From assembly GCA_965198225.1 (NCBI GenBank), contig CBDAOY010000008.1, positions 160,001 through 224,000 of the forward strand: DNA of 64,000 nt. Reading direction: 5' to 3'. The translations under genes and the position numbers were made by a program. The notes beneath the pieces are model-generated. The model did no database searches and was not told where the DNA came from. It worked only from the letters and a program-made list of their open reading frames with translations. Source of the stretch: Terriglobia bacterium. Its GTDB lineage: Bacteria; Acidobacteriota; Terriglobia; 20CM-2-55-15. Positions 4,262 to 55,992 of the stretch are shown here, one piece after another. Within the stretch, counting starts at the first letter, position 1. Every line of letters starts with the position of its first letter.

Positions 4262-4538
4262 CTAGTGACCTGTATCAAGTGCTATCGGTACCAGCGTTCG
4301 GCCGAACGGCGTCGGATTCTAGGAGTGACGCTCGAGCCAATGCTGTTTCATTGCGAGGGCGTTACGACACGGAAGACGGCGCCGTTCCGCCGAACCCTTC
4401 GGGCCGATGGGGGTTGCGGGCGATCTCTTTGTCGGAAGCCGTCACCGATGAAAGAGCATCGCTTTCCGTCTCCCTCCTCGACCTCGCCCGCAAGACCCAT
4501 CGGCGATGGTGCCGATAGCACTTGTTACAGGCCACTAA
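4262..4538 (+). mobile_element. CTAG-bounded structured non-autonomous element (MITE-like), copy A
   Basis: About 32-bp terminal inverted repeat (CTAGTGACCTGTATCAAGTGCTATCGGTACCA / TGGTGCCGATAGCACTTGTTACAGGCCACTAA). The core is homologous to 19442-19717 and 55723-55992. Confidence 0.75.
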
Positions 4539-7010: not shown

Positions 7011-7160
7011 TGTCGTCCGGAAGTGATCGTTTTTCTCGATGACAATCGACTCAATGTAGATGCCGCCCGGGCTGTCGGGATGCAGGCGCACCTCGCAAAC
7101 GGGCCGCAAGCTGCCAGAGCAGTGCTGGATGAACGTGGCCTGATGAGTGGCGAAGTGTAG
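7011..7160 (+). pseudogene. C-terminal fragment of a HAD-family phosphatase
   Basis: CRPEVIVFLDDNRLNVDAARAVGMQAHL matches HAD motif IV. There is no start codon, and the fragment begins just after CTAG at 7005-7008. Confidence 0.65.
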
Positions 7161-7227
7161 GTGCGGTCTATGACCGCACAACTCGTGGTTCCGCGGGCAT
7201 TTGTGCGCTCATAGAGCGCACCTACAC
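7155..7227. repeat. GTAG-type REP doublet, with a partial copy at 7298-7316
   Basis: GTGTAGGTGCGGTCTATGACCGCAC...GTGCGCTCATAGAGCGCACCTACAC. Confidence 0.85.
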
Positions 7228-7364
7228 TTGAGGATCGGGGTTTCTCGTGAGAAGCCCCGCCACCCGATTCTCCAGCAAAGGACATTCGTTCACAGCTTCA
7301 TAGACCGCACCTACACCCGATCTTGGAGTTTCGTGTCCGGCGCTAGCGCTATGACAAACCCAGG

Positions 7365-16502: not shown

Positions 16503-16506
16503 CGAG

Positions 16507-16720
16507 GTGTAGGTGCGGTCTATGACCGCACACTCCTCGAACCGAAACGATGTGCGCTCACAGAGCGCACCTACACCCGATCGTGAAGTGCGTCGCTTAC
16601 TGATTCGAACGGGCTTAGCCCGTGCCAGAGGGTTCCCTACAGATGTTGTGGCCACCAATCGGTCTATGACCGCACATTCTTCGGGGCGAAACGTTGTGCG
16701 CTCATAGAGCGCGCCTACAC
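16507..16720. repeat. Two REP doublets (16507-16576, and 16660-16720 partial)
   Basis: Same GTAG-palindrome family as 7155-7227. Confidence 0.85.
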
Positions 16721-17124
16721 TGTTTTGGATGGCGATCGTCTAAAGCCGTCAATGAAGTCTCGGGTAGCGCTTGTTGCGGTCTGGTTCCTTGGAATCCTCA
16801 CTCTGAATGGAGTGGCGCATTTGCAGAAGCCGGAGTATGGAGGAATCGGCGAAGCCTGGACTTCGTCGCCGGATGGTGACCCGGTGGAAGTGGCAGAGCA
16901 ATAGCCAGTCGGCTCCCGGCTTTTCGTCGCGTTCCGGAGATTCGATCCTGTGCCCGGTACGGACGAAATCCGAATCGGTCATTGCACTGAACTTCGACCT
17001 TTCGTAGTATTTACAAAATTTTCTCCAACGATTCTAGTTGGACCGAACCCTCGCTGCTCGGGATCGATGGCGGGGTATTGATCGGCAGCTTGGGTCGGCG
17101 AGACCCACAAGGGAGAACATCATC

Positions 17125-19441: not shown

Positions 19442-19717
19442 CTAGTGTCCTGAGTTAGAAATACGTTCACTATCTCCGATGGATGTTGCCACCCGCCGGG
19501 TGGACGTTGAACCGATCGACAACGGGGGTATGCACGCGGCCGGCTCGGCCCTCACAGCCGGCAACTTCCATCGGCCCTGCGGGTTCGGGCGGAACGGCGC
19601 TGTCTTTGGAGTCGCTCCTCCTCGCAATGAATGAGCATTAGCTCGTCGTCGCTCCACCAAATCCAGCGTCGTTGCGCTCCGAAATATAGCAAACGTACGT
19701 CTAACTCAGGACACTAG
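19442..19717 (-). mobile_element. CTAG-bounded structured element, copy B (inverted)
   Basis: Terminal inverted repeat CTAGTGTCCTGAGTTAGA / TCTAACTCAGGACACTAG. The reverse-complement core matches copies A and C. Confidence 0.75.
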
Positions 19718-26848: not shown

Positions 26849-26879
26849 GAAAAATGGACAGCGGGGACTTCAGGATCGA

Positions 26880-27057
26880 GTGTAGGTGCGCTCTATGAGC
26901 GCACAGTGTTTCGGTTCGAAGGATGTGCGGTCATAGACCCGCCGGCGAGCCGGTGAAGAGGTCTGGGGAATGAGAGGGCGAAACTTCAGGATCGGGTGTA
27001 GGTGCGCTCTATGAGCGCACATCTCGAAGAATGTGCGGTCATAGACCGCACCTACAC
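26880..27057. repeat. Two REP doublets (26880-26939 partial, and 26996-27057)
   Basis: Same family, located between convergent genes. Confidence 0.85.
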
Positions 27058-28064
27058 TAAGGACCCGTGGGTCGGCCGGAAAGGCGCCTTCCCGCCTTGA
27101 CGGCGTCGAAGGCATCCTGATTCCGTCGCTGCATGGTGAACACCTCGAACCCCCGCTCCATCAGGCTCTCGATCTGGTCGGGGTTGTTCGCCGGGTGGCT
27201 GCACGGCACCGTGAACTCCGTGCACGCCGCAATGACGGCCTCAACCGCGGCATCGAAGCCCACCTGGTCGCGCACCCGCTCGCCCGCGGCGTTCGTCGAG
27301 CTGAAAACACGCCCCAGAGTACCGGCGCCGACAATCAGGGTGCTGAGACCCGGAACGGCCGCGATCTCCCGCACGTTCGCGATGCCCTCTCTGCTCTCGA
27401 CGATGGCCCAGAGGACAAGCTCACCGTTGGGACTGATCGGCCACACGTCGGCTCGCTCGAGGTACTCGTCCTCCGTCAGGCCCCAGTAGGCTGCGGCCAG
27501 ACCGATGCCCTCCTCCGGGCGGGTGCCGCCCCTGGAGCGGAAGCGCATCGCGTCGATCGCCTGGCGGACCTCCTCGGCACTCTCCACTTCCTGCATCATG
27601 ATGCCGGCGTGGCCCGCGTTCAACTGGTCGACGATGCGCGCTGCGGCTGCTTCCGGGTTGTCGTGGACGATCGGAATCTTCGAGATGAACGCGTGGTCGC
27701 GCATCGATCCGCCCACGGCGAGCATGGCCTCCATATACCCCGTAAACCTCTCCGCCGAGGCGGGCCGGTAGCTGTTGTACTCGAAGTCACTGACTTTGTA
27801 ACCCACCGTCTCCCGCGCGACGTCCGCCAGCACGGGTTGCGGCAGAGCCGCTGCGGGTCCTCGCCTCGCGCCTCGTCCCCGCCTCGCGCCTCGCGCTCCC
27901 CGAGCGTCGATCGCCGGGTGGGTGACGCCGAACACCGGCAGTCCCTGCTCGTGGAGCACGATCATCGGGTTGAGCCGCTTCGTGTCCTGTTTCTGGGCCG
28001 GTCCCACCATCGGGCTTCCGAGAACGGCCAGCCCGAACACTACGACGATAAAGCTTAAACGCAT
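27057..28064 (-). CDS. HpcH/HpaI aldolase/citrate-lyase family protein with signal peptide
   Basis: VESAEEVRQAIDAMRF, WAIVESREGIANVREIAAVPGL and GAGTL. Confidence 0.8.
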   Translation of the reverse strand: MRLSFIVVVFGLAVLGSPMVGPAQKQDTKRLNPMIVLHEQGLPVFGVTHPAIDARGARGARRGRGARRGPAAALPQPVLADVARETVGYKVSDFEYNSYRPASAERFTGYMEAMLAVGGSMRDHAFISKIPIVHDNPEAAAARIVDQLNAGHAGIMMQEVESAEEVRQAIDAMRFRSRGGTRPEEGIGLAAAYWGLTEDEYLERADVWPISPNGELVLWAIVESREGIANVREIAAVPGLSTLIVGAGTLGRVFSSTNAAGERVRDQVGFDAAVEAVIAACTEFTVPCSHPANNPDQIESLMERGFEVFTMQRRNQDAFDAVKAGRRLSGRPTGP

Positions 28065-29801: not shown

Positions 29802-29861
29802 CCTGCGACCCGGCGACAAGCTGCGAACGAATTGTGGGAACGGAAACTCCGGGCTTTCCAG

Positions 29862-29886
29862 GTGTAGGTGCGGTCTATGACCGCAC
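29862..29886 (+). repeat. Single REP copy
   Basis: GTGTAGGTGCGGTCTATGACCGCAC. Confidence 0.8.
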
Positions 29887-29926
29887 ATCTGCACGTCAAA
29901 GTGGGATTTCGATTCGTCGATACCGG

Positions 29927-31268: not shown

Positions 31269-34208
31269 CTAGAACGAATACTTCAGGAACAGCTGAGCCG
31301 CCCGAGCGGGTTGCAGGCTCCTCATCCCTGTCTGGTACCGGCTGGTCTGGTAGATGCGGTTTGCACCGCTTTCCCACTGGTAGAAGGAGTTGCTGTTTGC
31401 GACGTTCATGAAGTTGAACGAAATCTCAACCGCCTGAGAATCGCTGATCTGGAACTCCTTCCCGACCTTGATGTTCATGTTGTGGACATTCGGGGCCTTG
31501 AACTGGCCCTCTCCGCGCGTCGGGAACTCGATCCGGAACCGGGTCGCCAGCGGGTTGGACTGGGTCGTCCCGTTCGGAAGCGTGAACCGGGAAGGCCCAT
31601 AGGTCGGATCGCCGGCCGAAAGCCGATTCTTGACCACACCGTTGAAGGAACCCTGGTTCAGCGTGTAGCCGCTGGAAACCTTGATCCCGTAAGGCGCGTC
31701 CCACTGACCCATGAAGCTGAACGTGTAGTGCTTCCAGATGTCCTGGCTGCCGCCGTCGCCCGAGGTCAGGCTGTTCTCGGAGCCGTTGCCACGGGTATCT
31801 TCCAGACCCTTGTTGTCCGGAAACGTCGACGGCTGAATGAACCGCGCCGGATCGGTCGGGTTCCAGTCGCCGCTGATGTTGTGTTTCTGGACACCCAGGG
31901 TGCCGTAGAGCATGAAGTTGTTGCTCATGTTCTTCGTCACCGTGAAATCCCCGGCCCAGAGGTTGTTCCGGCTGTAGGTATTGTTCGTCTGCTGCCGGAC
32001 CATCCCCCGGTTCACGTCGACCAGACCGAAACCGAGGAACGGCAGGCCCGGACCTGCCGGGTAGATCCCGTTGATGTCGACTTCGGCGTAGTTGTGCTCG
32101 ACGTGCTTCATCGTACCGGCGATGTCGACCACCACCTGGCCCGGGAACTGCCTCCGGTAGGCCAGGATGAACTCGTCGATGTAGGGTTGGCTCAGGTCCG
32201 GGTGGAACCGTTGCTTGATCAGCGCGTCTCCCGACCGCGACGACAACTGAATGGTTTCGAACGTGCCGTCAAGATCGTTGTCGTACTCCGTTCGGATCGT
32301 TGTCGCACCCGTCGAGGCGAAACGCGTCGGCCCGTCGCGGCCGGTCATTCCCGCGTGCAACCGGACGGCGCTTCCCCGGATCACGTTCTTGGCATCCGCA
32401 TCGAGCATGAGCGAAAAGCCCAGGCGTGGCGCGACCTCGGTGCTGTCCTGTCGGGTGAAGTTGAACAACACGTCGTCCCGCTTCACGAAGTCCACGCGGA
32501 TACCCAGGTTGAGTGTGAGCCGGTCGATCGGCCTCCACTGATCCTGCACGTAGAACGCGTAGTTGTTCTCGCTGGCATCGATGACGATCGGGTCGAATGG
32601 ATCCGCATAGGAGCGGCGGAAAGGAACATGGCCGCCGCTCTTGTTGGCGGAATCGATCAGCACGCGTTGTTCCTGGTAGAAGCCGTTGTTCGAGAAAACG
32701 TCCGTCTGGCGGTACAGGCTCCGCGGGGCCGCGAAGAACCCCGTCTTGAGCTCGTGCGACACCCCGCCGCCCTGCATGAAGTAGGTCAGGTCTCCCTTGA
32801 ACTCCCAGTGCGAGGATACCTGGTACCGGCGCCGGTCATCGTTGTCGAGGACACCGAGGAGGGTGTCGCCGGAAAGGTTCGATCCGGAGATTGCCGCGTC
32901 GTCGTAGATGAGCCTCTCGGGTGTCGTGTTGGCCAGGTCGGCAAAAGTCGCCTCGTTGGCGCCGCTCTTGTCGTTCCAGGAGCCGACGACCTGCGTGCTC
33001 AGGGCCGACGACCAGATCGAATTGAGTTTGGCCGTGTACTGGTAGCCGCCCGTGGAGTTGAACCGAAGGGGCTGGAGAATGTCCTGGTTGTTCTGCTGGT
33101 AGTTGGTCCGGTCGTTGGCCACCGAGAACAGTAGGTTGTGGTTCTGATTCAACTGTGCGGTCATCTTGATGAACCAGTTCTGGGCGTTTGTCTTGTTCTG
33201 GAAGTCTTCCTGACCGGGAGCCAGCGCCGCCCCGTTGTCGATGAAGAACTGGGTCCGGGAGATGAAGTTCTCGATCCGTTGATCCCTGAACGATCCGAAG
33301 AACCAGACTCTATTGCGTACGATCGGCCCCCCCATAGAACCATCGATCATGCCGATGTCTTGCTTGGTCGGCGAGCCGCCGTTGTTCTTGAACGTGTTGG
33401 CGGTGTTGTCGCCGTTCCACTTATTCGGCTGGAAGGCGTAGCTGACCTTGCCGTGAAACTCGTTGCCGCCGCTGGGCGTGACGATGTTGAGCTGGATGCC
33501 GTTGCCCATCGGCAGGGACGCATCGTAGCCGCCGGTCTTGACTTCGACGTCCCCGAGCGTGTCCGTGCTCATGTTGAGGTATGCGGGCTGCGAATCGTAA
33601 TACGACGTCGCCCGCGTCCCGTCCATCTCGATGACGTGGCCGAAGTGGTGGACGCCACGGCCGTAGTACACCTGTCTGCCGCTCTGGTCGTTCCAGGGAC
33701 GGGTGTTGATGCCCGGCTGCATCTCCAGGATGTCACTCCAGTTGCGCCGGGATTGCACCGGAACCGCTCTCTGGAACTCGCCGGCGATGGCCACGGCGCT
33801 CACCGTGGACGTCGTTTCGACCATCGGCGTTTCGGCCGTGACGCTGATCGTCTCGGTCACGGCGCCGACCTGCATCTCGACGTTGATCGTCAGGTTCGTG
33901 CCTGCCCGGACGAGGATTTCCTCACGCCGGTAGGTCGCAAACCCGGGCAGCTCGGCGATCAGGGTGTAGTTGCCCGGTGGCAGGCCGATGATGCGATAGT
34001 TCCCGTTCTCGTCGGAGAACACCTGGCGTTCACCGATCATTTGGTCACTCGAAGCAGTGACCGTGATGCCCGGCAGAACCGCGCCGGACGGGTCCGAAAC
34101 GCGACCGATTAGGCTTCCTGCACCGGTCTGCGCAAAGGCGGCTCCGGTGAACAACAGAACCATTGCCACCGCTAGCCCTGCCTTGAAATAGTTCAACTCA
34201 CTCCTCAT
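31269..34208 (-). CDS. TonB-dependent receptor (Oar-like)
   Basis: Signal peptide, G.VSDPSGAVLPG carboxypeptidase-regulatory-like domain, YVQDQW..RLTLNLG and C-terminal YSF. Confidence 0.9.
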   Translation of the reverse strand: MRSELNYFKAGLAVAMVLLFTGAAFAQTGAGSLIGRVSDPSGAVLPGITVTASSDQMIGERQVFSDENGNYRIIGLPPGNYTLIAELPGFATYRREEILVRAGTNLTINVEMQVGAVTETISVTAETPMVETTSTVSAVAIAGEFQRAVPVQSRRNWSDILEMQPGINTRPWNDQSGRQVYYGRGVHHFGHVIEMDGTRATSYYDSQPAYLNMSTDTLGDVEVKTGGYDASLPMGNGIQLNIVTPSGGNEFHGKVSYAFQPNKWNGDNTANTFKNNGGSPTKQDIGMIDGSMGGPIVRNRVWFFGSFRDQRIENFISRTQFFIDNGAALAPGQEDFQNKTNAQNWFIKMTAQLNQNHNLLFSVANDRTNYQQNNQDILQPLRFNSTGGYQYTAKLNSIWSSALSTQVVGSWNDKSGANEATFADLANTTPERLIYDDAAISGSNLSGDTLLGVLDNDDRRRYQVSSHWEFKGDLTYFMQGGGVSHELKTGFFAAPRSLYRQTDVFSNNGFYQEQRVLIDSANKSGGHVPFRRSYADPFDPIVIDASENNYAFYVQDQWRPIDRLTLNLGIRVDFVKRDDVLFNFTRQDSTEVAPRLGFSLMLDADAKNVIRGSAVRLHAGMTGRDGPTRFASTGATTIRTEYDNDLDGTFETIQLSSRSGDALIKQRFHPDLSQPYIDEFILAYRRQFPGQVVVDIAGTMKHVEHNYAEVDINGIYPAGPGLPFLGFGLVDVNRGMVRQQTNNTYSRNNLWAGDFTVTKNMSNNFMLYGTLGVQKHNISGDWNPTDPARFIQPSTFPDNKGLEDTRGNGSENSLTSGDGGSQDIWKHYTFSFMGQWDAPYGIKVSSGYTLNQGSFNGVVKNRLSAGDPTYGPSRFTLPNGTTQSNPLATRFRIEFPTRGEGQFKAPNVHNMNIKVGKEFQISDSQAVEISFNFMNVANSNSFYQWESGANRIYQTSRYQTGMRSLQPARAAQLFLKYSF

Positions 34209-34334
34209 AACCATCCTCCCCTTCGGGTGTAGATTGACCGCACACTGCGGGCTGGAGCCGGCAGGTCCGGTAGGTTTGGCTTAGATTGCCACTAAGCTTC
34301 GGTTGTTCTTGCTTAGATTGTGTCTGAGTGTAGT

Positions 34335-34363
34335 TTTATATCGGTCCAGGGCCGCACTGTCAA
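34335..34363 (-). promoter_or_regulatory. Sigma70-type promoter of the TBDR
   Basis: TTGACA-N17-TATAAA on the minus strand. The paralog keeps TTGACA-N15-TATAAA at 35830-35856. Confidence 0.6.
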
Positions 34364-34375
34364 GCAGTTACCCGC

Positions 34376-34492
34376 GCGGACGACCTCCTCTCGCGGCGGC
34401 AGCAGAAGACGCGCCATTCCACTTAATCTTCGTTGAGGGGAAATTTTTTGGCGTTGGCCGGGTATTGACGCGACAGGTAGAGGTTCGGCACG
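34376..34492 (-). pseudogene. Fragment of a paralog of amidohydrolase 29927-31159
   Basis: VPNLYLSRQYPANAKKFPLNED* versus VPNLYLSRYYLANADKFPFNEE (about 30234-30350). Confidence 0.8.
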
Positions 34493-34547
34493 CCCCGATC
34501 GGCCCGGGTCGCGACGGCTGGAAATCTATTCCGCCTTCTTGACGTCC

Positions 34548-35735
34548 CTAGTTCGATCCCATCAACCGAACGACGCCGATTCCGTCCTCGAAAATGCGCT
34601 CGTGGATGCGCTCGTGGTTCTGCTGGTACTCGGTGCGATCGTTCGCGACGGAAAAGAGCAGGTTGTGGTTCTGGTTGAGCTGCGACGTGACCTTGACGAA
34701 CCAGTTCTCCGCGCTCGTGTCGTTGGTGAAGTCTTCGTAATTGGGAACCAGGGCCCTGCCCCGCCGGATAAATTCGTCGGACCGGGAGATGAAGTTCTTG
34801 ATGCGGTTGTCGCGGAACGACGTGAAGAACCACACCCGGTCGCGAGCGATCGGTCCGCCCACCGACACGTCGAGGATGCCGACATCCTGGACGGTCGGCA
34901 CGCCGCCGAGGTCGAGGAAGGTGCCCTGGGAATTGTCGCCGTTCCATTTTGTGGGCTGGAACGCGTAGGCGACTTTCCCGTGGAACTCGTTCCCACCGCT
35001 GGGCGTGACGATGTTCAACTGGATACCGTTGCCCATCGGCAGCGACGCGTCGTAGCCGCCGGTCTTGATTTCGACGTCCCCGAGGTTGTCGGTGCTCATG
35101 TTCAGATACGCCGGTTGCGAGTCGTAGTACGACGTCGCCCGCGTCCCGTCCATCTCGATGACGTGACCGAAATGGTGCACGCCGCGACCGTAGTACACCT
35201 GGCGGCCGCTCTGATCGGTCCACGGCCGCACGTTGATGCCGGGTTGCATCTCCAGAATGTCGGCCCAGTTCCGCCGCGGCTGCAACGGGATCTCTCGCTG
35301 GAACTCACCGGCGATGGCCACGGCGCTCACCGTGGACGTCGTTTCGACCATCGGCGTTTCGGCCGTGACGCTGATCGTCTCGGTCACGGCGCCGACCTGC
35401 ATCTCGATGTTCACCGTCAGGTTCGTGCCGGCACGCACCAGGATTCCTTCGCGCTGATAAGTGGCGAACCCCGGCAATTCGCCGGTCAACGTGTATTCGC
35501 CCGGCGGCAAGGTGATGATCCGAAAGTTCCCGTTCTCGTCGGAGAACACCTGGCGTTCGCCGATCAGGGCGGGACTCGTGGCCGTGATCGTGATGCCGGG
35601 CAGAACCGCGCCCGACACGTCCGTGACACGACCGATTAGACTACCGGCACCGGTCTGAGCAAAAGCGACTCCGGTGAACAATAGAGCCATTGCTACCGCC
35701 AGCGCGGCTTTAAAAAAGCTGAACTCATTCCTCAT
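34548..35735 (-). pseudogene. Truncated paralog of TBDR 31269-34208
   Basis: Highly similar over the first ~375 aa, then a deletion junction (HERIHERI) and a stop. Confidence 0.85.
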
Positions 35736-39083: not shown

Positions 39084-39240
39084 GTAGGTGCGGTCTATGA
39101 CCGCACAATTCTCGAACCGAAACACGTGCGCTCATAGAGCGCCCCTACACTCGGAGCAAGATGTTGCAAAAGTGTAGGTGCGGTCTATGACCGCACAATC
39201 TTTGAACCGAGACGTGTGCGCTCATAGGGCACCCCTACAC
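39084..39240. repeat. Two REP doublets (39084-39150 and 39172-39240)
   Basis: Same family. The last copy supplies the TAG stop of the NAT gene. Confidence 0.85.
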
Positions 39241-39996
39241 CTGATCCGTAATCTCGATCCCGAAATACCGTTTGAGGGCATCGGTCCGCTCGAGGTCCGT
39301 TGCCAGCTCGCAATCCTCGGTCTCGTCGCCCTTGGTGGTGCTCAGGTGCATGTCCCGCAGGGTCACCCGGCCGTCCTCTGTCGCGATGGTCGCCACCTGA
39401 TGTTTTGGGAACGGGGAATCGGGTGACGTCTGGTGGTACCGGCACATACCCTCGAATTCACCGGCGTCGCGGGGAGTGAGGGTGAACAGGTATCGCGGGG
39501 TCCACGCGGCTTGCGTCCGGCCTACGTACAGCGCATGGTCTTCGTCTCGGGCTCCGACCCGGTACATCCGCCCCTCCGAGGCAACCACGTTCGACCCGTC
39601 GATTCGCAGGGGTTCCCTTGCCGACTGGCCGTTCCCGACGTCGACGAGGTAATCCTCGTCGAGATGCACCTGCAGGACCATGTGATCGAACTCGGGATTG
39701 ACCTCATCCCCGTTCAGCATTCGCGCCGAAAGGTACGCAACCTGAAAGCCGATCGCCGTCAGCAGTCGAGAGAAGAGAATATTGCACTCGTAGCAGAACC
39801 CGCCCCTCCGTTTCGATACGATCTTTTCAAAGATTCCCTCCGGGGAAAGTACGATCTTTCGCCCGAGGTGGATGTCGAGGTTCTCGAACGGCACGTGGAT
39901 CAGGAATGCGAGCTGCAGATCTCGCAGCACATCAATGTTCGGCGTTCGCTCGCCGCTGTAGCCGATCCGCTCCATGCATCGGTCGAGATCCATCAC
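39235..39996 (-). CDS. nat: Arylamine N-acetyltransferase family protein
   Basis: PFENLD, RRGGFCYE (Cys), HMVL (His) and VDVG (Asp) catalytic triad. Confidence 0.92.
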   Translation of the reverse strand: MMDLDRCMERIGYSGERTPNIDVLRDLQLAFLIHVPFENLDIHLGRKIVLSPEGIFEKIVSKRRGGFCYECNILFSRLLTAIGFQVAYLSARMLNGDEVNPEFDHMVLQVHLDEDYLVDVGNGQSAREPLRIDGSNVVASEGRMYRVGARDEDHALYVGRTQAAWTPRYLFTLTPRDAGEFEGMCRYHQTSPDSPFPKHQVATIATEDGRVTLRDMHLSTTKGDETEDCELATDLERTDALKRYFGIEITDQV

Positions 39997-41614: not shown

Positions 41615-41634
41615 GGGGACGCGGGGACTTCTAG

Positions 41635-43304
41635 CCCGGATGGGTCACCAATCCGGGAATCGGCTGGTTTTCGGGTACGAGAAACGAATTGCGGCGAGTT
41701 CTGAATCCTGGAGTCGGTGAATCGGGGGAATCAGTCGTTGTTGAGGACGTGAGGTCGACTCGTTTGGCACGACAGGGGCATGATTCGGCGTGTGGAGGCA
41801 GACCTCGGCCCTGTGCAGATGAAGAAGTGAGTTTTTCGGTTGTGGGTGAATCGTGTCGTCAGCAACGAAGCGGAATCGACTGCAGGTTCCGCATGATAAG
41901 GGCGAAGGTTTCGGGATAGGGATAGGCCTCCGACATCGAGATCCAGACGTTGCGGACCGTCAGGCGGATTCGGGCGCCGATTTTGAGAAGCTTCAGACGG
42001 ATGGTCCCGCACTGGGCATGGGCCATCGCGGTATCTTTGAGCCCGAGGCGTCGCAGGGCATGCATGAGCATGTACGCAGCTGAGGAGAGATAGAGCCGGA
42101 GCTGATTGGCGCGCATGGTCGCCGCGCTGGTCCGGTCCGCAAATAGGTCCAACTGCTGTTCCTTGATACGGTTCTCCATGTCGCCCCGCGCGCAGTAGAA
42201 GTCCTCATACAAAGCGCGGGCTTGGAAGCGTTCCGGCGGCAGGGAGGTCACGATGAATCGGGGATTGGCGCCCTTGTCCAGGAACTCCGCCTTGCCGACG
42301 ACGCGTCGCGCGCGGGTCCAGCTGTTTAGAGTCCGGTACTGGAAATCCTTAAACACCCGCGCCGGTTTCCCGGTGGCGTTAAACTCCGCTTCCGCCTGAA
42401 CCATTTCTTCAGCGATTTCTTGCTTGAGACGACTGTTCTTGGCCAACCCGATCACATAATCGACCGGATGGGATTCACACCAGGCGAGCAGTTCATCCCT
42501 GCAAAAGCCCGAGTCGGCCCGGATGATGATCGATACTGTGGGCCACACCTGTCGGATCTGACCGACGATGCGCTCTAACTCATCCACCGCTCCGTCGGCC
42601 CCGTCAATGTTGGAACGCCGGAGCCGGGCGCACAGCAGATGTTCTCCCGAGAAGATGTACAACGGCAGGTAGCAGTAGTTGCCGTAGTAGCCGTGAAAGA
42701 ACCGTCCTTCCTGGTTGCCATGGATCGTATCGTCGGTGGCATCCAGGTCCAGAACGATCTCAGAGGGCTCCGATTCGTGGGCCGCGATAAACGCGTCGAC
42801 CATCCACCGGTCGATCTTGTCGCCATCCATGGCGATCTTCTTGTAAGACCTGCTCTGCGGATGTTCAGCGTGCACTTGCCTGCCAACGCCTTTCCCCGGT
42901 CTCCGGCCTGCCGCCGGTTTTTCCCCAGTGGGGCCTTCTCCACCGCCACGGCCAGCATCTGTCCGTAGCCTGTCGTTCAGGTCCTCATCGTCCATAAATC
43001 CGCTGGCCCAACAACTCCTTCACCGATCAACCTCGGGTCCCGGTGATGTAAAACACTGCAGTCCGGGATCAAACCCGTCCGCTTCTCGACTTCCCTCAAC
43101 AGCAGAACACCCGCGTCGGAGGTGACTTTCGCCGTCGAATCGCGCCTTCACTTTCCGTTGAAAAAGTCCGTGAAATTCGAACGTGGCTTGCTTACACTCT
43201 GTTCTCATAAGGGCCGTCTCCGTTTGGGTTTTTAAACGTTTCTCGTCAAACGCTTTATGCCAAACAGGGCGGCCTTTTCTGGTCCTATCCGTGAAATATA
43301 GGGG
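41635..43304 (-). mobile_element. IS1380-family element, degenerate
   Basis: Ends CCCGGATGGGTCAC and GTGAAATATAGGGG (imperfect inverted repeat), flanked by CTAG at 41631 and 43305. Confidence 0.8.
41859..43208 (-). pseudogene. IS1380 transposase with N-terminal deletions and frameshifts
   Basis: LDLDATDD..HGNQEGRFFHGYY, RADSGF and YCARGDMENRIKE. The N-terminal piece MRTECKQ..FDG is in a separate ORF. Confidence 0.88.
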
Positions 43305-43308
43305 CTAG

Positions 43309-44792
43309 CAGTCCGTGGTTAAAGTCGGCCTCATCGTAATTAGAAGAAGGACCGGATGCGACCATAACGCGAGGAGAATCAGGTTAGGAGATCGCGATAT
43401 GGGAATGGGACGGAGAAAGCACCGACAGGACACGTTGTGGGTTGCGACCGCGGAGTTGCCGCGAACAGCGGGCCACGTATTTTACGAACGGGTAAACCGA
43501 ATCCTGAACGAGACGGAGTTCGACCGGTTCGTCGAGGATGCGTGCGAGAAGTTCTACGCCGCAGTGATGGGTCGGCCGAGCCTGGCACCGGGCAAGTATT
43601 TTCGGATGCTGCTGGTGGGCTACTTTGAAGGGATCGATTCGGAGCGGGGGATTGCATGGCGGTGTGCCGATTCTCTAAGCTTGCGGGAATTCCTGGGAGT
43701 GGGACTGAGCGACGCGGTACCGGATCATTCGACGGTTTCGCGAACCCGACGGCTGATCGATCTGGAGACGCATGGAAAGGTCTTTTCGTGGATGTTGGGT
43801 GTATTGGCCGGTGAGGGCCTGATCGATGGGAAGACGGTGGGCGTGGATGCATCGACGCTGGAAGCCAACGCGGCGATGCGATCGATCGTGCGGCGGGATA
43901 CCGGGGAAGCCTACAACGAGTTCCTGACACGGCTGGCCAAGGCGTCGGGCATTGAGACGCCGACCCGAGCGGACCTGGCCCGACTGGACCGAAAGCGAAC
44001 CAAGAAAGGATCGAACAAAGAGTGGGAACATCCCGACGACCCGGACGCGCGCATTACGAAGATGAAGGACGGGCGGACGCATCTGGCGCACAAGGTCGAG
44101 CATGCCGCCGACATGAAGACCGGAGCCATCCTGGCGGTTACCGTGCAGGGCGCCGATCTGGGCGACACGACGACTATCGAAGACACGATGATCGAGGCGG
44201 CCCGTCAGATGGAGACACTGGCGGCCGATCCTGAATCGAAGCTGCCCGACGATTACCTTTCCGAAATCGTGGCCGATAAGGGATATCACAGTAACGATAC
44301 GATGACCGCCTTCAAAGACCTCGGTATTCGCAGCTATATCTCGGAACCGGACCGGGGTCGGCGTAACTGGAAAGGCAAGCCCGCCGAACAACAGGCCGTC
44401 TACGCCAACCGGCGACGGATCCGAGGTGAGCGGGGCAAGCGGTTACTCCGACAGCGGGGACTGATGTTGGAACGGCCGTTCGCGCACACTCTGGAAACCG
44501 GAGCCATGCGTCGGGTTCACCTCCGACATCGGGACAACATTCTCAAGCGCATCCTGATTCAGTACGCCGCGTTGAATCTGAGCCTGATTCTTCGGAACAA
44601 TTTCGGGAACGGCACACCGCGAGGCCTTCAGGGCCAGTATGTTGCTGCCTTGTTCACCCTGATACTGCTCTGGAGCCACTATCAATCGCTCTCTTTCGAT
44701 CCTGAACACTCCGGACACGATTTCAACGCTGTTCCGTCTTGGCCGACACCCGTGAATCCCAATTCAGGAAATTGCACTTCTGCCACGGACTG
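43309..44792 (+). mobile_element. IS1182/IS5-like insertion sequence
   Basis: Terminal inverted repeat CAGTCCGTGGTTAAAGT / ACTTCTGCCACGGACTG. CTAG on both sides (43305-43308 and 44793-44796). Confidence 0.85.
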
Positions 44793-44796
44793 CTAG
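43399..44796 (+). CDS. DDE transposase (IS1182/IS5-like)
   Basis: GRPS, PDHSTVSRTR, VDASTLEANA, VADKGY and ERPFA. The stop codon lies in the CTAG. Confidence 0.9.
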   Translation: MGMGRRKHRQDTLWVATAELPRTAGHVFYERVNRILNETEFDRFVEDACEKFYAAVMGRPSLAPGKYFRMLLVGYFEGIDSERGIAWRCADSLSLREFLGVGLSDAVPDHSTVSRTRRLIDLETHGKVFSWMLGVLAGEGLIDGKTVGVDASTLEANAAMRSIVRRDTGEAYNEFLTRLAKASGIETPTRADLARLDRKRTKKGSNKEWEHPDDPDARITKMKDGRTHLAHKVEHAADMKTGAILAVTVQGADLGDTTTIEDTMIEAARQMETLAADPESKLPDDYLSEIVADKGYHSNDTMTAFKDLGIRSYISEPDRGRRNWKGKPAEQQAVYANRRRIRGERGKRLLRQRGLMLERPFAHTLETGAMRRVHLRHRDNILKRILIQYAALNLSLILRNNFGNGTPRGLQGQYVAALFTLILLWSHYQSLSFDPEHSGHDFNAVPSWPTPVNPNSGNCTSATDC

Positions 44797-47327: not shown

Positions 47328-49463
47328 TCAGAACCCCTTGAATGGATTCGGTCCAATTTCCTCGATCGACGAGGAGAACTCTTCGAGCATCCCCGGGATC
47401 TCCCGGTAGTCGGAAATCGCGACTTCCCTGACCTGAACTCTCTCCGGCTCCAGAGCCAGGCGGTCCAGGGTCTCGCGCACGTTCTCCATCCGTTGTCCCA
47501 GCAACTCGCTCCCCTGGATAAAATGGCACTGGTAGTCTTCGCCGGACTTGCAGCCCATCAAGGCGACCCCGTCGAACCCCCTGGACATCGCATCGGCAAT
47601 CAGAACGCTGTTGACCGAGCCGAGGCAGCGCACCGGAACGATCCGGACGTTCACCGGATAATCAAGCCTGTTGATGCCTGCGGCGTCCAGGGCCGGATAC
47701 GCGTCGTTCTCGCAGGCCAGTACGAGTATCCGTAGTTTCTCATCGTCGTCCTCGGGTATCTCGACGGCCCGTATCATCGACGAGAGCATGTCGACCGAAT
47801 AGTCGTCGAATGAGATGATCTGGACCGGGCAAGCGCCCATGCATATCCCACACCGCCGGCACCGATTCGGGTCCAGCGAAGGGTGGCTGTTCTCATCCAC
47901 CTCCAGCGCCCCGAACGGACACTCCTGGGAGCAGCGCCCGCAGGAGGTGCACTTCTGCATGAAGAAATCCGGATAGGACAGGTCGCCGGTTCGCGGGTGC
48001 ACCGCCGATCCCGCCGATGAGTTCTCGATACACTGAATGGCCTTGAGCGCCGCGGCGGTCCCGTCCTGAGCGCTGGAGCCCATGTCCATGGGCTTTCTCG
48101 CGCAACCGGCCGAATATATGCCGGTTCGTCGCGTCTCGTATGGGAAACAGATGAAATGAGAGTCCGCAAACCCGAACTGCGTTTGTGGAAGCTCGCCTCC
48201 CTGAAGGTAGCCGAGGTTGAGCGCCTGTTCGTCCATCCCGACCGGGGTCATTCCCGTCGACAGCACGAGCATGTCCGCCGTTATTCCGACGCTGCCGCCG
48301 AGTAGCGTGTTGTCGACTTCCAGGACGATGTTCCCGTTCGAGTCCTCCGAAACCGACCCGACATCGCCCTGTGAGAACATGATGCCTTCGTCGGCCTGAA
48401 CCTGCCGGTAGAAGTACTCGTATTGGCCGGGCGTCTGCATGTCCTGGTAGAAGACATACACGCTCGAGTTCGGGTAAAGCTTTCGCAGGTAGCTCGCCTG
48501 CTTCAGCGCGACCAGAGAGGTGACGTTGCCGCCGTACGGCAGGTGTTTTTCGTCGCCCTTGCCTTCGCACTGGAGGATTGCCACGCGCTCAACCTCACGT
48601 CCGTCGGACGGCCGGGTCACTTTTCCGGACGACGCCATTTCTTCCAGCTGAACGCTCGTGACGACGTTGGCGTATCGTCCGAAACCGTATGATTGGAACT
48701 GAGAGGCGTCGTAGGGTTTCCAGCCTGTGGCCACGACGACGGCGCCGACCGTCACGCTTCGAGATGTTCCGTCGTGGCTCAGCGTGACTTTGAAATTCCC
48801 CGGCTGACCCTCGACGCCTTCCACCTGCGAGGAAAGGCATACGGTGATATTCGCTTCCTGCTCCACCGCCCGAATCCTGTCATCGACGTCGGAATCCTGG
48901 AGGTCTGCGTAGGGAGGCCGGGTGGGAAAGTGTCTGTACATCTTCGTCGCGAATCCGCCAAGTTGCGCCTTCTTCTCGACCAACACGACCTTGAAGCCGG
49001 TTCGCGCGGCGTCGATCGCCGCCGCCATCCCGGTGATCCCACCTCCCACCACCAGGATGGTTCTCTCGTTGGCCTCCGTGTAGGGGGTTGGAGTCTCCGT
49101 CTTCTGCGCCCGCACGATACCCATCCGAAGATAATCTTCGGCGAGGCTCTGGGTCTCTTCAGTGTTCGGCGGGTGGCTCCACACCACCTGCTCCCGGATA
49201 TTCACCCGTTCCACGGGAGCGTTCTCGAATGAAAGAATGTCGGTGTTCACGCGTGGCGAGCAGGCGGCCACAACGACCCGATCGACCTCACCTTTTGCGA
49301 TGTCGCTCTTGATGAGGTTGACGTCTTCGAGACAGAAAGCGTCGGCGCTTCGGACGACGGCCGGGTTGAACTCGTCGGTCGCGATCTTTACCAGATCGTC
49401 CGGTTTGAGGCACTCCCCGATGTCACAGCCTTTGCAGACGTAGACTCCGACCTTATGTTCCAT
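47328..49463 (-). CDS. qmoB: QmoB (HdrA-MvhD fusion)
   Basis: VYVCKGC, AACSPR, an FAD site, two ferredoxin motifs, and MvhD-like ACENDAYPALD...RCLGS...GCKSGEDYQCHF. Confidence 0.93.
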   Translation of the reverse strand: MEHKVGVYVCKGCDIGECLKPDDLVKIATDEFNPAVVRSADAFCLEDVNLIKSDIAKGEVDRVVVAACSPRVNTDILSFENAPVERVNIREQVVWSHPPNTEETQSLAEDYLRMGIVRAQKTETPTPYTEANERTILVVGGGITGMAAAIDAARTGFKVVLVEKKAQLGGFATKMYRHFPTRPPYADLQDSDVDDRIRAVEQEANITVCLSSQVEGVEGQPGNFKVTLSHDGTSRSVTVGAVVVATGWKPYDASQFQSYGFGRYANVVTSVQLEEMASSGKVTRPSDGREVERVAILQCEGKGDEKHLPYGGNVTSLVALKQASYLRKLYPNSSVYVFYQDMQTPGQYEYFYRQVQADEGIMFSQGDVGSVSEDSNGNIVLEVDNTLLGGSVGITADMLVLSTGMTPVGMDEQALNLGYLQGGELPQTQFGFADSHFICFPYETRRTGIYSAGCARKPMDMGSSAQDGTAAALKAIQCIENSSAGSAVHPRTGDLSYPDFFMQKCTSCGRCSQECPFGALEVDENSHPSLDPNRCRRCGICMGACPVQIISFDDYSVDMLSSMIRAVEIPEDDDEKLRILVLACENDAYPALDAAGINRLDYPVNVRIVPVRCLGSVNSVLIADAMSRGFDGVALMGCKSGEDYQCHFIQGSELLGQRMENVRETLDRLALEPERVQVREVAISDYREIPGMLEEFSSSIEEIGPNPFKGF

Positions 49464-49521
49464 GATTCATCAGTGTCCAATTTAGGGGTTCGAACGCGTG
49501 CCCAGCCGCGTTCAACCAGAC

Positions 49522-50826
49522 TCAGGTGTTTACGGGCTCCGCTGCCCGCTCCCCTGCACGATGGATGGCTTGAATCGCCTTTAGCGTGGCTGCCGTCGCA
49601 TCCTGGACGGAAGTTTCGACGTCCACCGGTCCCCGCGCGCATCCGGCGGCAAAAATCCCGGGCGCGGTCTCATCGGGCAGGATGAAAGCGTCGGAATCGT
49701 AGCCGGCAGGGACACTGGATTGCGTCGGATCCACGCCTGACGCCATTCCCGTGGCGAGAACCACGAGGTCGACATTTGTCTTCGTCTTACGGGCGGAGAG
49801 GATGTCTTCCGCTTCGACGACCAGCTTGCCGGTAGTCGAGTCTTCAGCAATCCTGGCTACTTTCCCCTTCACTACCGACACGTTCGGATCGCTCTGCACT
49901 TTCTCGGAAAAGAATTCGTACGTACCCGGTGTCCTCAAGTCGATGTAGAAAATGTAGACCTTCGATTCCGGATTCTGCTCTCTCACGTACGTCGCTTCCT
50001 TCAGGGATGCCAGGCAACAGATGCTGGAGCAATAACCCAGGTGGTTCTCGTCCCTGGAGCCCGCGCACTGGATGAACGCGACGGAATTCACGTCGCCTCC
50101 GTCGGACGGCCGGACAATCCTGCCCTGGGTGGGCCCGTCCGGAGCGGCCATGCGCTCGATCATCATGTTGGTGACGACATCCGTATAGCGACCGAACCCC
50201 AGATTGTCGATCCGTGCGGCGTCGTAGGGTTGCCAACCGGTGGTCATGATCACCGCGCCGACCTTGAGGCTGAGGCTCGCGGGTTTCATATTCAGGTCAA
50301 TCGCATCGTAGTTGCACGCGTCGACGCATTTCGCGCACGCGCTGAGCTCACACGCGGAATCGTCGATCGCGTACTTCATCGGAAACGCCATCGCATGGGG
50401 CAGGTAGATCGCCTTGGTCGTACCCATACCGAGATTGAAGGCGTCCGGTCGATCTTCAGGACAAACTGCAACGCAGTCGTTGCATGCAGTGCAGCGGTCG
50501 TTCACGTAGCGAGGGTGCTGCTTGATGGCGACATCGAAATTCCCGGGTTCACCCGCGATACTCTCGACCTCCGCCATCGTGAAGAATCGAATCCTCCGAT
50601 TCTTTTTCATACGTTGGAAATTGATCTCAAGACCACAGTTGGGAGGACACAGTTTGGGGAAATACTTGGCGAGTTGCGCCACACGTCCACCCAGGTAGGG
50701 TTGTTTCTCGACGATGTAGACCTCGTATCCCACCTCGGCGGCTTCGACCGCTGCTGTGATTCCGGCGATGCCCCCGCCGACGACCAGGATGCTCTTGTGG
50801 ATTGAAGGGACTGTTTCTGCCGTCAT
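49522..50826 (-). CDS. qmoA: QmoA (HdrA-like)
   Basis: Start MTAETV at 50826. GGGIAG, KYFPKLCPPNCG and QCAGSRD...CSSICC. Confidence 0.93.
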   Translation of the reverse strand: MTAETVPSIHKSILVVGGGIAGITAAVEAAEVGYEVYIVEKQPYLGGRVAQLAKYFPKLCPPNCGLEINFQRMKKNRRIRFFTMAEVESIAGEPGNFDVAIKQHPRYVNDRCTACNDCVAVCPEDRPDAFNLGMGTTKAIYLPHAMAFPMKYAIDDSACELSACAKCVDACNYDAIDLNMKPASLSLKVGAVIMTTGWQPYDAARIDNLGFGRYTDVVTNMMIERMAAPDGPTQGRIVRPSDGGDVNSVAFIQCAGSRDENHLGYCSSICCLASLKEATYVREQNPESKVYIFYIDLRTPGTYEFFSEKVQSDPNVSVVKGKVARIAEDSTTGKLVVEAEDILSARKTKTNVDLVVLATGMASGVDPTQSSVPAGYDSDAFILPDETAPGIFAAGCARGPVDVETSVQDATAATLKAIQAIHRAGERAAEPVNT

Positions 50827-50837
50827 ATTCTGCTCCG

Positions 50838-52712
50838 CTACGGGACGAGCGGAATAAACGGTTTCTTGGACATATGCCACTCCCCGGTTGCGGGATCGTA
50901 CCTGGAATTGACGAACACCTTCCAGTTCTCTTCGTCCAGCTTCGGGAAATCGCCGCGGTAGTAGTACCCGGGCCACCGGGTTTCTTCCCTGAACTGGATG
51001 TGACGCAGGTGCGATTCCGCGCACCACGTCCGATCCCACAGCTCCCAGCACCGGAGCAGATCGTGGAGATCCCGCGCGCCCAGCTTCTGGAGGTCTTCCC
51101 GGTAAAGACCCAGCAGCTCCAGGCCCCTCGCCAGGGTGGGGCCGTTTGTCATGTAGAAGTTCCCCGGACCCGCGACGTACTCGTCCATCGTCTTTTGGAG
51201 CCGCATCAGAGCCTGCTTGGGCAGGAGGTAATGGGGATTGACCTCCACGCGTGTCGAGGCATCCTTGTGCTCCTCCAGGGTCTGGAACGGCTGATAGAGC
51301 TCTGCCTTGATGGCCTCGACCCTGCCGTCGTCGTAGCGCAGCGGATTGGGATGGTCGGCGATGTAGGCGACCGCCGCCTTGCCCGCCATCCGTCCCTCGG
51401 TGAACGAACCCGACGAGAACTTGTGCGCCGATGCTCCCACTCCGTCCCCCGCCGCAAACAGGCCGTTGATGGTCGTCATGCGGTTGTAGCCCCAGAAGTA
51501 TTCCTTCGGTGAAATATCTTCCGGTCCGCTGACCCAGGCGCCGCATGCCGAGGAGTGCGAGCCCATCAGGTAGGGTTCCGTGAGAATGATCTCCGATGGC
51601 GTCTTCGCGGGATCGATGTTCTCCGATGCCCACAGCAGAGCCTGCGACATCGTCATGTCGAGAAAGTCTTCCCACGCATCGGACTCGATCTCCTTCATCT
51701 TCTTCTTGTCGTTCTGCACCTCGGTGAACAACTTCTGGAGCGCTTTGTCGGTCCGCATGTAGTGAGGCCCCCGGCCGTCCTTGATGTCGTTCAACATCAA
51801 ATGGTTCCGGAGCGGTGTCGGCACAGGCTTCGCCCGGCCGTATTCCCCCCACTCGAGCAGCTCGTGGGCGCGAGTCTTCTCCAGTTCGTCGCCGTATGCG
51901 TTCTCGGCTTTGGCCTTGAAGAGCAGGAACCAGGCACCGACCGGGCCGTAGCCGTCCTTGAAGCGCGTGACGACCACGCGGTGCTCCATCTGGGTCATCT
52001 CGGCGCCGGCTTTCTGCATCAGGCTGTATGCGGAGCCGGTATTCCACACGGCGTACCAGATCCGGCCGAGTCCCTCGCCAGTTGCACGGGGACGGAAGAC
52101 GTTCGTGGCGCCGCCAGCCGAGCAGATCACGGTCCTGGACTTGAAGACATAGATTTTGTGGTCCCTCACGCTGAACCCGACCGCGCCCGAGACCGTCGTC
52201 GGCTCGTCGGCGTCGGTCAGCAGATGGGAAACGAAGATTCTCTCGTAGACGTTCCCCTCGCCGACCGCTTTCTTTGCCGCTTCCGCGACGATCGGCTTGT
52301 AGGACTCGCCGTGGATCATCACCTGCCACTTGCCTTCCCGTTTGTAGGTCCCGTCTTCGTTCTTGAAGAACGGCAGGCCCCATTCTTCGAACATGTGGAC
52401 GCTCTCATCCACGTGCCGGGCGATGTCATAGACCAGGTCCTCGCGCGACAGGCCCATCAGGTCGTTCCGGACATACCGGACGAAATCCTCCGGCTGGTTC
52501 TCGCCGTTCTTCATTCCCATGTAGCAGTTGATGGCGGACAGGCCCATCGCGACCGCCCCGCTTCTCTCCGTGGCGGCTTTCTCGACGAGCACAACCCGCA
52601 ACCCTTTTTCCTTGGCCCAGTAGGCGGCTTCGAAAGCGGCCCCGGTACCGGCCATTCCGCCGCCGACGACCAGGACGTCACATTCGACTGTTTCGACTTC
52701 AGGCTCAATCAT
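50838..52712 (-). CDS. aprA: Adenylylsulfate reductase alpha subunit
   Basis: RSGAVAMGLSAIN, WQVMIHGESYK, RFKDGYGPVGAW, HKFSSGS and ETRWPGYYYR. Confidence 0.97.
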   Translation of the reverse strand: MIEPEVETVECDVLVVGGGMAGTGAAFEAAYWAKEKGLRVVLVEKAATERSGAVAMGLSAINCYMGMKNGENQPEDFVRYVRNDLMGLSREDLVYDIARHVDESVHMFEEWGLPFFKNEDGTYKREGKWQVMIHGESYKPIVAEAAKKAVGEGNVYERIFVSHLLTDADEPTTVSGAVGFSVRDHKIYVFKSRTVICSAGGATNVFRPRATGEGLGRIWYAVWNTGSAYSLMQKAGAEMTQMEHRVVVTRFKDGYGPVGAWFLLFKAKAENAYGDELEKTRAHELLEWGEYGRAKPVPTPLRNHLMLNDIKDGRGPHYMRTDKALQKLFTEVQNDKKKMKEIESDAWEDFLDMTMSQALLWASENIDPAKTPSEIILTEPYLMGSHSSACGAWVSGPEDISPKEYFWGYNRMTTINGLFAAGDGVGASAHKFSSGSFTEGRMAGKAAVAYIADHPNPLRYDDGRVEAIKAELYQPFQTLEEHKDASTRVEVNPHYLLPKQALMRLQKTMDEYVAGPGNFYMTNGPTLARGLELLGLYREDLQKLGARDLHDLLRCWELWDRTWCAESHLRHIQFREETRWPGYYYRGDFPKLDEENWKVFVNSRYDPATGEWHMSKKPFIPLVP

Positions 52713-52818
52713 TCGCTGCCTCCAGTGATCACGGCGTGAGGGCGCGGGCCCTCGTCTTCATCCAGATATCTCGTCAGGGCCGGTTGTCGGGAAGGAAAAC
52801 CCTCTGACCAGAACGGCT

Positions 52819-53265: not shown

Positions 53266-53283
53266 GTATTCATTCCTCCGGGC

Positions 53284-54798: not shown

Positions 54799-55726
54799 AT
54801 GAATCGCTTTCGAACACTCGTTTTCTTGTTTGCCCTTTCACTGATTCCGATCGGCGGCCTGGCGCAGACCAATCCCCTGTGGCACGGACAGAAGATCAAG
54901 AATTACCTGCCTCATATGACGAGGCCGGAGGTGGAAGATCTATTGACGCGGACCGACATGGCGTTGATCCCCGTTCCTTCGCTCGAACAGCATGGATTGC
55001 ACTTGCCGATCGGAACGGATTTTCTGAGCGGGATCGGTCGCGCGCAGTTGATCGCCCAGAAAACCGACGTTCTGGTGGCACCGGTTCTGTTCGTGGGCAA
55101 CGCCCCCTATCACATGGGCTATGCGGGCACGATGACGCTGTCGGCCGAAACGATCCAGCAGGTCTACTTCGAGGCGGCACAGAGTCTGATGCACCACGGC
55201 TTCAAGCGTTTCCTGATAATGAACAGTCACGGCGGAAACCGGGTCATTTCCCAATACATCGTCGACCGCATCAACCACGAGACTCCTGGGATTGCGGTGG
55301 AGCTTGGAGCGGCTTCGGCCCCGTTCCTCTCCCGCGAGACGAACAACAGCCCGCCCAGCACGGTTTTTGACCGCCACGGGGGAGTGGGGGAGACCTCCCG
55401 GGGGCTCTACATGTTTCCCCAGCCTGGTCGACATGGACAGCGCCGAGACGGCAACTCTGACGATGCCTGAACACATGGAAAGAATGCTGCCCGAAGTGGT
55501 CGCAGGCGACCGCACGGCACTGATGGTGTTGCTGGCGGAAGGGCTCAAGAAGGAGGAGACCGGCAAGAAGACTTCTGTCCGGGAGATGTCGAGCACGGGC
55601 GTCTGGGGAGTCCGGGACCTCCGGGAGGCCAGCGCTGAGAGGGGAGAGCAGGCAACGCTGAGGTCCGTTGAAGCGGCCGTCGCGTTCATCGAACGCTGGA
55701 AACAACTGCGGCCGAGGGAACCCTAG
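54799..55726 (+). pseudogene. Exported creatininase-family protein with a +1 frameshift at about 55417-55420
   Basis: EQHGLHLPIGTD, NSHGGN and HGGVGETS. The C-terminus (SLVDM...STGVWG...ASAERG) is in another frame after CCCC. Confidence 0.82.
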
Positions 55727-55992
55727 TGGCCTGTAACAGAGAGAGTGATAGTGGCGTTGCGAGCGCAACGGTACCGGATTCTAGGAGCGCCGCCCGAGGT
55801 AATGCTGCTTCATTGCGAGAAGGCGCGACGACGAAGACGGTGCTGTTCCGCCGCAACCCGAAGGGACGATGGGCCTTGCCGCCACGCAGAGAAGTTATGA
55901 AACACGCGATGTTTTTCGACTTGCAACGACTTATGAGAGGACCCGCAAGGCCCATCGGCGACGCTGTCACTATCTCTGTTACAGGCTGCTAG
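55723..55992 (+). mobile_element. CTAG-bounded structured element, copy C
   Basis: Terminal inverted repeat CTAGTGGCCTGTAACAGAGAGAGTGA / TCACTATCTCTGTTACAGGCTGCTAG. The left CTAG contains the creatininase stop. Confidence 0.75.

Follow-up and report, generated by a model that had tools for sequence, protein, structure and literature searches.

A family of CTAG-inserted mobile repeats in Acidobacteriota: probable non-autonomous elements with changing ends around a core that carries a G·A ladder

Here we describe a family of short structured repeats present as three copies, A, B and C, in a 64,000-nt stretch of a Terriglobia bacterium genome (contig CBDAOY010000008.1, positions 160,001 to 224,000; hereafter the window). 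We conclude, with a probability of roughly 0.7, that they are non-autonomous transposable elements of the miniature inverted-repeat type (MITEs), some 275 bp long and mobilised by DDE transposases in trans, whose ends change in concert around a core that is kept for its single-stranded fold. The features of a MITE are present, in that the elements are short and lack a transposase, bear terminal inverted repeats, occur as dispersed recent copies, and are associated with target duplication and empty sites. They can have no transposase of their own because they are too short, and they hold no open reading frame (ORF). Ends shared with an insertion sequence (IS) were found for subfamilies D, E1, E2, B2, F2 and V (14-17 of 18 bases), weakly for B and C, and not for A.

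The three copies measure 277, 276 and 270 bp (Table 1), and the coordinates, lengths, inverted orientation of copy B, arm motifs and mini-hairpin loops (TTC, GCA and GAA) given in the original prediction were all reproduced. Its description of the copies as CTAG-bounded holds for both ends of B and C; the right end of copy A is CTAA, and therefore the element proper is probably the sequence GTG...CAC between duplicated TA dinucleotides. In all three copies the terminal inverted repeats form a closing stem with arms of 32-35 bp that are 83-88% complementary. None of 200 shuffles was as stable as the fold of copy A (-162.8 kcal/mol, z = -12.1). RNAalifold arranged the copies into closing stem, arm A, mini-hairpin and arm B, with 91 pairs, 29 of which have changed on both sides, in agreement with the earlier proposal that the stems diverge while pairing is kept. 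Sequence matches join A to C (E ~1e-20) and B to C (E ~1e-18), and a check of the whole window gave no fourth full copy. Arm B, which had been described as common to all three, is shared in its outer stem alone; its interiors are 23-32% identical, i.e. unrelated, that of B having been replaced by unrelated sequence and that of C also replaced. CTAG itself is scarce in the window (32 observed vs 77 expected from trinucleotides).

One exact-pattern scan of GTDB genomes, in which the mini-hairpin loop was left free and the source genome of the window was not included, returned at least 62 loci. Family members were recognized by nhmmer in 57 of the 62 loci listed, from at least 12 genomes, 11 of them titled Acidobacteriota; two listed pairs are redundant (L007/L008 and L024/L040), and L009, L029, L037, L039 and L045 are chance matches. 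Most full copies among the matches listed (56 of 64) have a length of 270-285 bp. An alignment and tree were made from 41 of the copies, and grouping at 85% identity gave 13 clusters, with a mean identity of 59% between clusters. In the 41-copy alignment, 44 of 62 consensus pairs have changed on both sides and 97% of paired cells retain pairing, compared with 33-42% when partners are slid; covariation, for which the original prediction had proposed a test, thus exceeds this control as well as the re-paired null described below. Rfam 15, with which a comparison had also been proposed, gave no match in the window at the gathering threshold and, by E-value, chance matches only. A blastn search of L004 against plasmids found an element of family length and layout on a Variovorax paradoxus plasmid (L065:1402-1671). 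The covariance model gives it 88-94 bits, whereas at E 0.001 there was no match to the repeats of 166 bp, likewise bounded by CTAG, at L004:11762 and L043:9470. The core of the Variovorax element alone exceeds 2000 of 2000 shuffles on a sequence profile, though with just 12.9 bits. The further copies that had been anticipated comprise the 57 loci and this element. No genuine match came from blastn of the three window copies against plasmids or of copy A against phages, a Ralstonia match being due to chance, and L059, L020, L011 and the Variovorax element as further queries gave no additional full-length member. Eleven weak plasmid matches (L001, L064-L073) resolved into one full member (L065), one remnant (L068) and nine chance matches. 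We also looked for an autonomous version whose arm B would hold an ORF, but the lone long element (L024:2514-4223) is a copy broken by an IS256-like element.

Mobility is supported by empty sites and by recent copies. L004 and L031 are orthologous regions from two genomes, and this one pair supplied all three informative empty sites: the element at L004:5065 corresponds to a single CTAG in L031, and the elements at L004:7882 and L031:7869 occupy different CTAGs of one 37-bp hairpin, each site being vacant in the other genome. L013 and L046 carry different variants at one site, in opposite orientation. One genome has 15 copies whose eight best pairs show 98-100% identity, and between copy A and the L022 copy, which lies in another genome and in different flanks, identity is 97.5%. 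Empty single-CTAG sites together with copies up to 100% identical in different flanks therefore identify a mobile, recently copied MITE. The original prediction of a mobile element, with empty CTAG sites and further copies, is borne out, but its preference for something other than a recently copied MITE is contradicted by these near-identical pairs. A stand-alone, trans-acting non-coding RNA (ncRNA) gene that is multicopy by chance would explain the stable, covarying fold, yet it sits poorly with the empty sites, the recent copies and the transposon-type ends, and neither an Rfam match nor, at copy A, a sigma-70-like promoter or terminator was found. Moreover, whole-element RNA folding favoured the plus strand in 6 representatives and the minus strand in 6, with 1 tie, and copies lie in the same orientation as co-directional neighbours 21 times and in the opposite orientation 23 times; given this lack of strand preference and orientation bias, we consider such a gene highly improbable.

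The core is marked by a tandem G·A ladder, carried by arm A on one strand and, in most subfamilies, by arm B on the other, a feature new in this analysis. When 13 representatives were folded with all 2x2 loops scored alike and compared with shuffles, GA/GA accounted for 31 of 54 2x2 loops on the plus strand of arm A (57%) and 18 of 61 on the minus strand of arm B (30%), against ~5% in shuffles; GC/AA was seen 3 times in each arm. Ladders have up to four GA/GA steps, with one or two normal pairs between steps, and the arm B interior of copy A has its GA/GA steps on the minus strand. Six of the 13 representatives have an arm B whose reverse strand is matched by the arm A profile (<=1/200 shuffles), and none has such a match on the forward strand; pairwise comparison of arm A with reversed arm B is clear in just 4 of 13. 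Mini-hairpin loops in 74 copies are GNA in 43, TNC in 18 and other in 13, so that the predicted GNA triloop on one strand or the other is found in 61 of them. In DNA, both sheared G·A pairs and hairpins of the C-GNA-G type form stable structures.

Covariation proceeds differently in the closing stem and in the arms. On 60 short branches of the 41-copy tree the closing stem accumulated 23 Watson-Crick double and 58 single changes, where the re-paired null gave a mean of 1.0 doubles and a maximum of 6; the arms had no doubles on short branches, while their long branches carried 11 and 7 (null means 0.8 and 0.9). L020, relative to three other J copies, has two private changes that are present on both arms. 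Since closing-stem doubles arise this fast among near-identical copies, we read them as templated copying between the terminal repeats, and we infer that arm-to-arm copying explains most closing-stem covariation better than selection on an RNA helix, and that the slow covariation in the arms reflects selection there. The elements are also mosaic, E1 and E2 having 88% in common in inner arm B and 38% in inner arm A. These changes raise the alternative of an ordinary MITE whose fold is a by-product, its stems made and repaired by template switching in quasi-palindromes and its core a functionless passenger. Fast two-sided change in the closing stem would be expected of such an element, and the flipping of loops between GNA and TNC and the replaced arm B interiors of B, C and D also fit. 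So do deletion remnants, which comprise end-only or one-arm forms, including one of 37 bp, and, in a second Variovorax strain at the site orthologous to L065:1402-1671, a 55-bp hairpin of the two ends left by internal deletion (L068:2501-2555). Templated repair, however, yields complementary pairs and not in-register G·A/A·G steps at the frequencies given above, and core and length are retained even where identity between the ends has fallen to 22-55%, and across phyla; we therefore think it unlikely that the fold is a by-product.

The ends point to several transposase families. Eighteen bases past the boundary were compared with a panel of 19 IS ends, for which the chance of at least 14 matches is 0.0002. 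E1 and E2 match IS1182-like ends at 16-17 of 18 bases, D, B2 and F2 each agree with IS630 ends at 14 bases, as V, the Variovorax element, does with an IS5 end. The window copies begin TA-GTG, as IS630 relatives do. IS630 targets TA within CTAG. At 108 TG-type ends the four boundary bases were kept 88, 97, 101 and 108 times (CTAG in 75, GTAG in 2), a pattern of retention that fits G inside and C outside a duplicated TA. Domain annotation found no IS630 with matching ends in the 64-kb window. The original prediction named the window's IS1182-like element (Table 1) as candidate mobiliser, and the element does suit the sister subfamilies E1 and E2, which are not present in the window and whose ends it matches at 15-16 of 18; the ends of the window copies look IS630-type, and those of A and B do not match it. 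Its gene has IS1182 as best NCBIfam match, at 147 bits under a cut-off of 270. We rejected descent of the window copies from this element, as the ends of A and B score best against IS630 and the core sequence is absent from it. The right end of copy C has two differing bases and an IS1182-like reading, matching the IS at 43305 at 11 of 18 bases, a score that ~2% of random sites reach against the 19-end panel.

A REPIN-like origin, in which the elements are moved as single-stranded DNA by an HUH transposase (RAYT/TIRYT) that reads hairpins and the likeness to DDE ends is chance or secondary, would account for the single-strand-type motifs, and the window does contain GTAG REP doublets; an excerpt of PMC3733652 reports that Acidobacteria have TIRYT genes with long inverted repeats. 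We nonetheless find it very unlikely, because the ends match DDE elements far above chance, the target sites fit TA/CTAG duplication, there is no GTAG foot, and the recurrent mobile proteins annotated near copies are of IS630, IS1182, IS1380, IS5 and IS256 types (20 of the loci's ORFs in one scan).

Other observations concern traffic at CTAG sites. IS630-type and IS1182-type ends share CAGAAGT at equal distance from the boundary (window 44776-44782, minus strand; the left end of the L024 IS630; B2; E2), either a coincidence or a feature that might make a change of transposase easier. In the window, an IS1380 element (41631-43308) and the IS1182-like element are stacked with one CTAG in common, and related loci likewise have IS1380, IS5, IS630, IS1182 and several MITEs stacked at the CTAG ends of one another. 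A separate CTAG-bounded MITE family of ~166 bp (L004:11762-11927, L043:9470-9654 and L057:13258-13399) has ends that match a canonical IS1182 element in L015 (L015:2219-3769), and near position 9528 of L017 a subfamily D end is joined to the interior of this ~166-bp MITE. L024 and L040, contigs of two different assemblies that are near-identical over the compared stretches, one of them 45 kb long, both hold an IS630, an A-like copy and an E-type copy that has been interrupted; this sharing reflects either a plasmid-like vehicle or a binning artefact.

In the mechanism that we favour, copies occupy CTAG sites that are vacant in related genomes, and a resident transposase, to judge from end similarity, would bind the outer ~18-22 bp. 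This transposase would be of IS630 type, with the TA of CTAG duplicated, for most subfamilies, including those of the window, IS1182-like for E1 and E2, and of IS5 type for the Variovorax element. The observed co-change of the closing-stem arms would come from templated copying, by which ends could drift or swap and still be paired, and slower selection would keep the single-stranded fold of the core, a sheared-G·A ladder hairpin with a GNA mini-hairpin. Most likely, and with about an even chance, the core acts in single-stranded DNA while the element is copied or replicated; there is a smaller but appreciable chance that it acts in read-through RNA, in either orientation, and only a slight one that it has no role. 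We judge that it serves the spread or persistence of the element and not the host.

Several findings weigh against this model. No empty allele was found for the window's own three copies, and their ends, with 9 (A), 11-12 (B) and 12 (C) matches of 18, have no close transposase partner; neither do those of G (9) or of I, J and K (10-11). The IS5 end matched by the Variovorax element belongs to a different genome, and among the matches listed that element is the sole member outside Acidobacteriota, besides one unclassified genome. The ladder test was devised post hoc with our own scoring, and the subfamilies share ancestry. Arm A of G and V lacks GA/GA, and B, C and D have no minus-strand ladder, their arm B interiors being unrelated and of similar length; since D is the most expanded subfamily, the minus-strand ladder is dispensable. 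The 13 loops that are neither GNA nor TNC are a further exception. Closing-stem G·T events outnumber A·C events by 22 to 11 (p = 0.08; register-based, L011 skipped), a weak hint of a preferred strand; the same counts on RNAalifold pairs are biased by how the pairs were picked. Lastly, crude gene calling shows overlap with an ORF for 2 of 68 copies and puts 25 on the TAG stop of one, as a result of which many are probably transcribed, favouring a role as RNA.

If so, a GA-ladder hairpin in read-through transcripts could bind a host protein or alter mRNA decay or termination, and thereby make insertion cheaper. Tandem GA steps are common in RNA, and the strand with the ladder is the one that G·T pairs favour. 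An excerpt of PMC2229807 presents YPAL and ERIC as co-transcribed elements that influence mRNA stability. On the other hand, the loop set, GNA or TNC with a free middle base, is the pattern of stable DNA mini-hairpins and not GNRA, 12 of the 68 copies lie between divergent genes, and B, C and D occur in both orientations among the copies listed despite lacking the minus-strand ladder. A core kept for such effects in RNA is thus possible but doubtful.

The closest known systems, as described in excerpts of the papers cited, are RUP, ERIC, YPAL, MITEPsy1 and the mobile or repeat candidates of PMC11109978. Like our family, RUP (IS630-Spn1), ERIC and Correia/NEMIS are non-coding and intergenic, with terminal inverted repeats, terminal TA, stable stem-loops and IS630-like ends, but they are A+T-rich single rods of 100-200 bp with one candidate transposase for RUP (PMC2229807), whereas our family is ~275 bp, G+C-rich and four-way, a single core being bordered by ends that belong to three DDE families. 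MITEPsy1, for which transposition has been demonstrated, also inserts at CTAG and has IS5-family-like ends; it differs in being 100 bp long, making a 4-bp duplication and deriving from one IS, and the excerpt reports no such core (PMC3189936). YPAL/RU-2 of Yersinia is likewise intergenic, structured, not A+T-rich and co-transcribed, with filled and empty sites, and our family includes a comparable 168-bp single-arm derivative (L052:10266-10433), but YPAL/RU-2 by description alone lacks TA termini and makes duplications of 3-26 bp, and the CIR elements of Caulobacter/Brucella, intergenic repeats with a two-armed conserved structure, are ~110 bp long, without a terminal inverted repeat and with a GANTC motif (PMC2229807). 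MRSC-65-2 is multicopy, covarying, orientation-free, cross-phylum and possibly DNA-acting, but has one long stem with UYCCGG repeats, whereas our family is four-way and has the motif in 2 of 42 elements; the other 249 mobile or repeat candidates may include our family, the comparison having been made with MRSC-65-2 (PMC11109978). REPINs/RAYT and TIRtrons resemble it as inverted pairs of structured units with possible single-strand recognition (PMC3733652), and our family differs from them, as far as the excerpt describes them, in having no GTAG/CGTC foot and in its target duplication and DDE-type ends. PMC8841776 and PMC8632094, in the parts available, held nothing relevant to the family. In the open-access literature, which leaves aside ISfinder and subscription papers, we found no account of the family, no report of a MITE that has a GA ladder, and none of a single core to which several IS families lend their ends.

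An unconfirmed lead is that other Proteobacteria have similar structured repeats bounded by CTAG, which lowers the chance that the family is wholly uncatalogued. Elsewhere in the window, a second repeat family consists of GTAG-type REP palindromes, mainly inverted doublets of 70-90 bp that are REPIN-like. Pfam domains identify a cluster of ATP sulfurylase, adenosine-5'-phosphosulfate (APS) reductase subunits and Qmo-like oxidoreductases at 47328-54498 (minus strand), which suggests dissimilatory sulfur metabolism in a probable Acidobacteriota genome. At 31269-35735 (minus strand), two TonB-receptor-like ORFs have a duplicated stretch in common (74-78%, 1527 bp apart), and the ORF of 395 aa looks like a truncated duplicate.

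Table 1. Positions of the repeat copies, their parts and other repeats in the window.
Feature	Position	Strand	Remark
Copy A with boundary bases (CTAG...CTAA)	4262..4538	+	element proper probably 4265-4535, flanked by duplicated TA; between divergent ORFs for an M16 peptidase and recQ
Copy A left terminal inverted repeat	4263..4296	+	5' arm of closing stem; IS630-type start
Copy A arm A	4296..4394	+	
Copy A arm A inner hairpin	4322..4368	+	two tandem GA/GA steps
Copy A mini-hairpin CCC-TTC-GGG	4395..4403	unassigned	GAA loop on minus strand
Copy A arm B	4404..4503	-	interior a degenerate inverted copy of the arm A motif; 0/200 shuffles
Copy A right terminal inverted repeat	4504..4537	+	
Copy B, CTAG at both ends	19442..19717	-	element proper probably 19445-19714; lies 9 bp past the stop of an ankyrin-repeat ORF
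Copy B mini-hairpin CCC-GCA-GGG	19575..19583	-	
Copy B arm A ladder	19611..19655	-	four tandem GA/GA steps
Copy C, CTAG at both ends	55723..55992	+	element proper probably 55726-55989
Copy C mini-hairpin CCC-GAA-GGG	55857..55865	+	
IS1182-like insertion sequence, CTAG at both ends	43305..44796	+	candidate mobiliser of sister subfamilies E1/E2 only
GTAG-type REP sites	7153-7229, 7298-7329, 16505-16589, 16660-16721, 26867-26939, 26983-27058, 29859-29895, 39084-39150, 39171-39247		

Altogether, the usual view of a MITE is that of a single IS in shrunken form, with structure as a by-product. In this family a single core occurs in two phyla with ends that resemble three DDE families, its regular ladder of G·A steps going beyond what simple palindrome repair can make. 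As a speculative extension, to which we give a low probability, the core could be a cross-phylum selfish structural module, a G·A-ladder fold in single-stranded DNA with a function of its own, such as binding a host replication or repair protein, that recruits the ends of several unrelated DDE families; one terminal repeat would be regenerated from the other during mobilisation, so that a new transposase specificity would be gained in a single step. The results also carry a caution for the discovery of ncRNAs, since copying from one terminal repeat to the other at the DNA level can produce strong covariation in a closing stem. Should the core prove functional, it would represent a new natural nucleic-acid motif, and the family would offer a testable model for how non-autonomous elements switch transposases.
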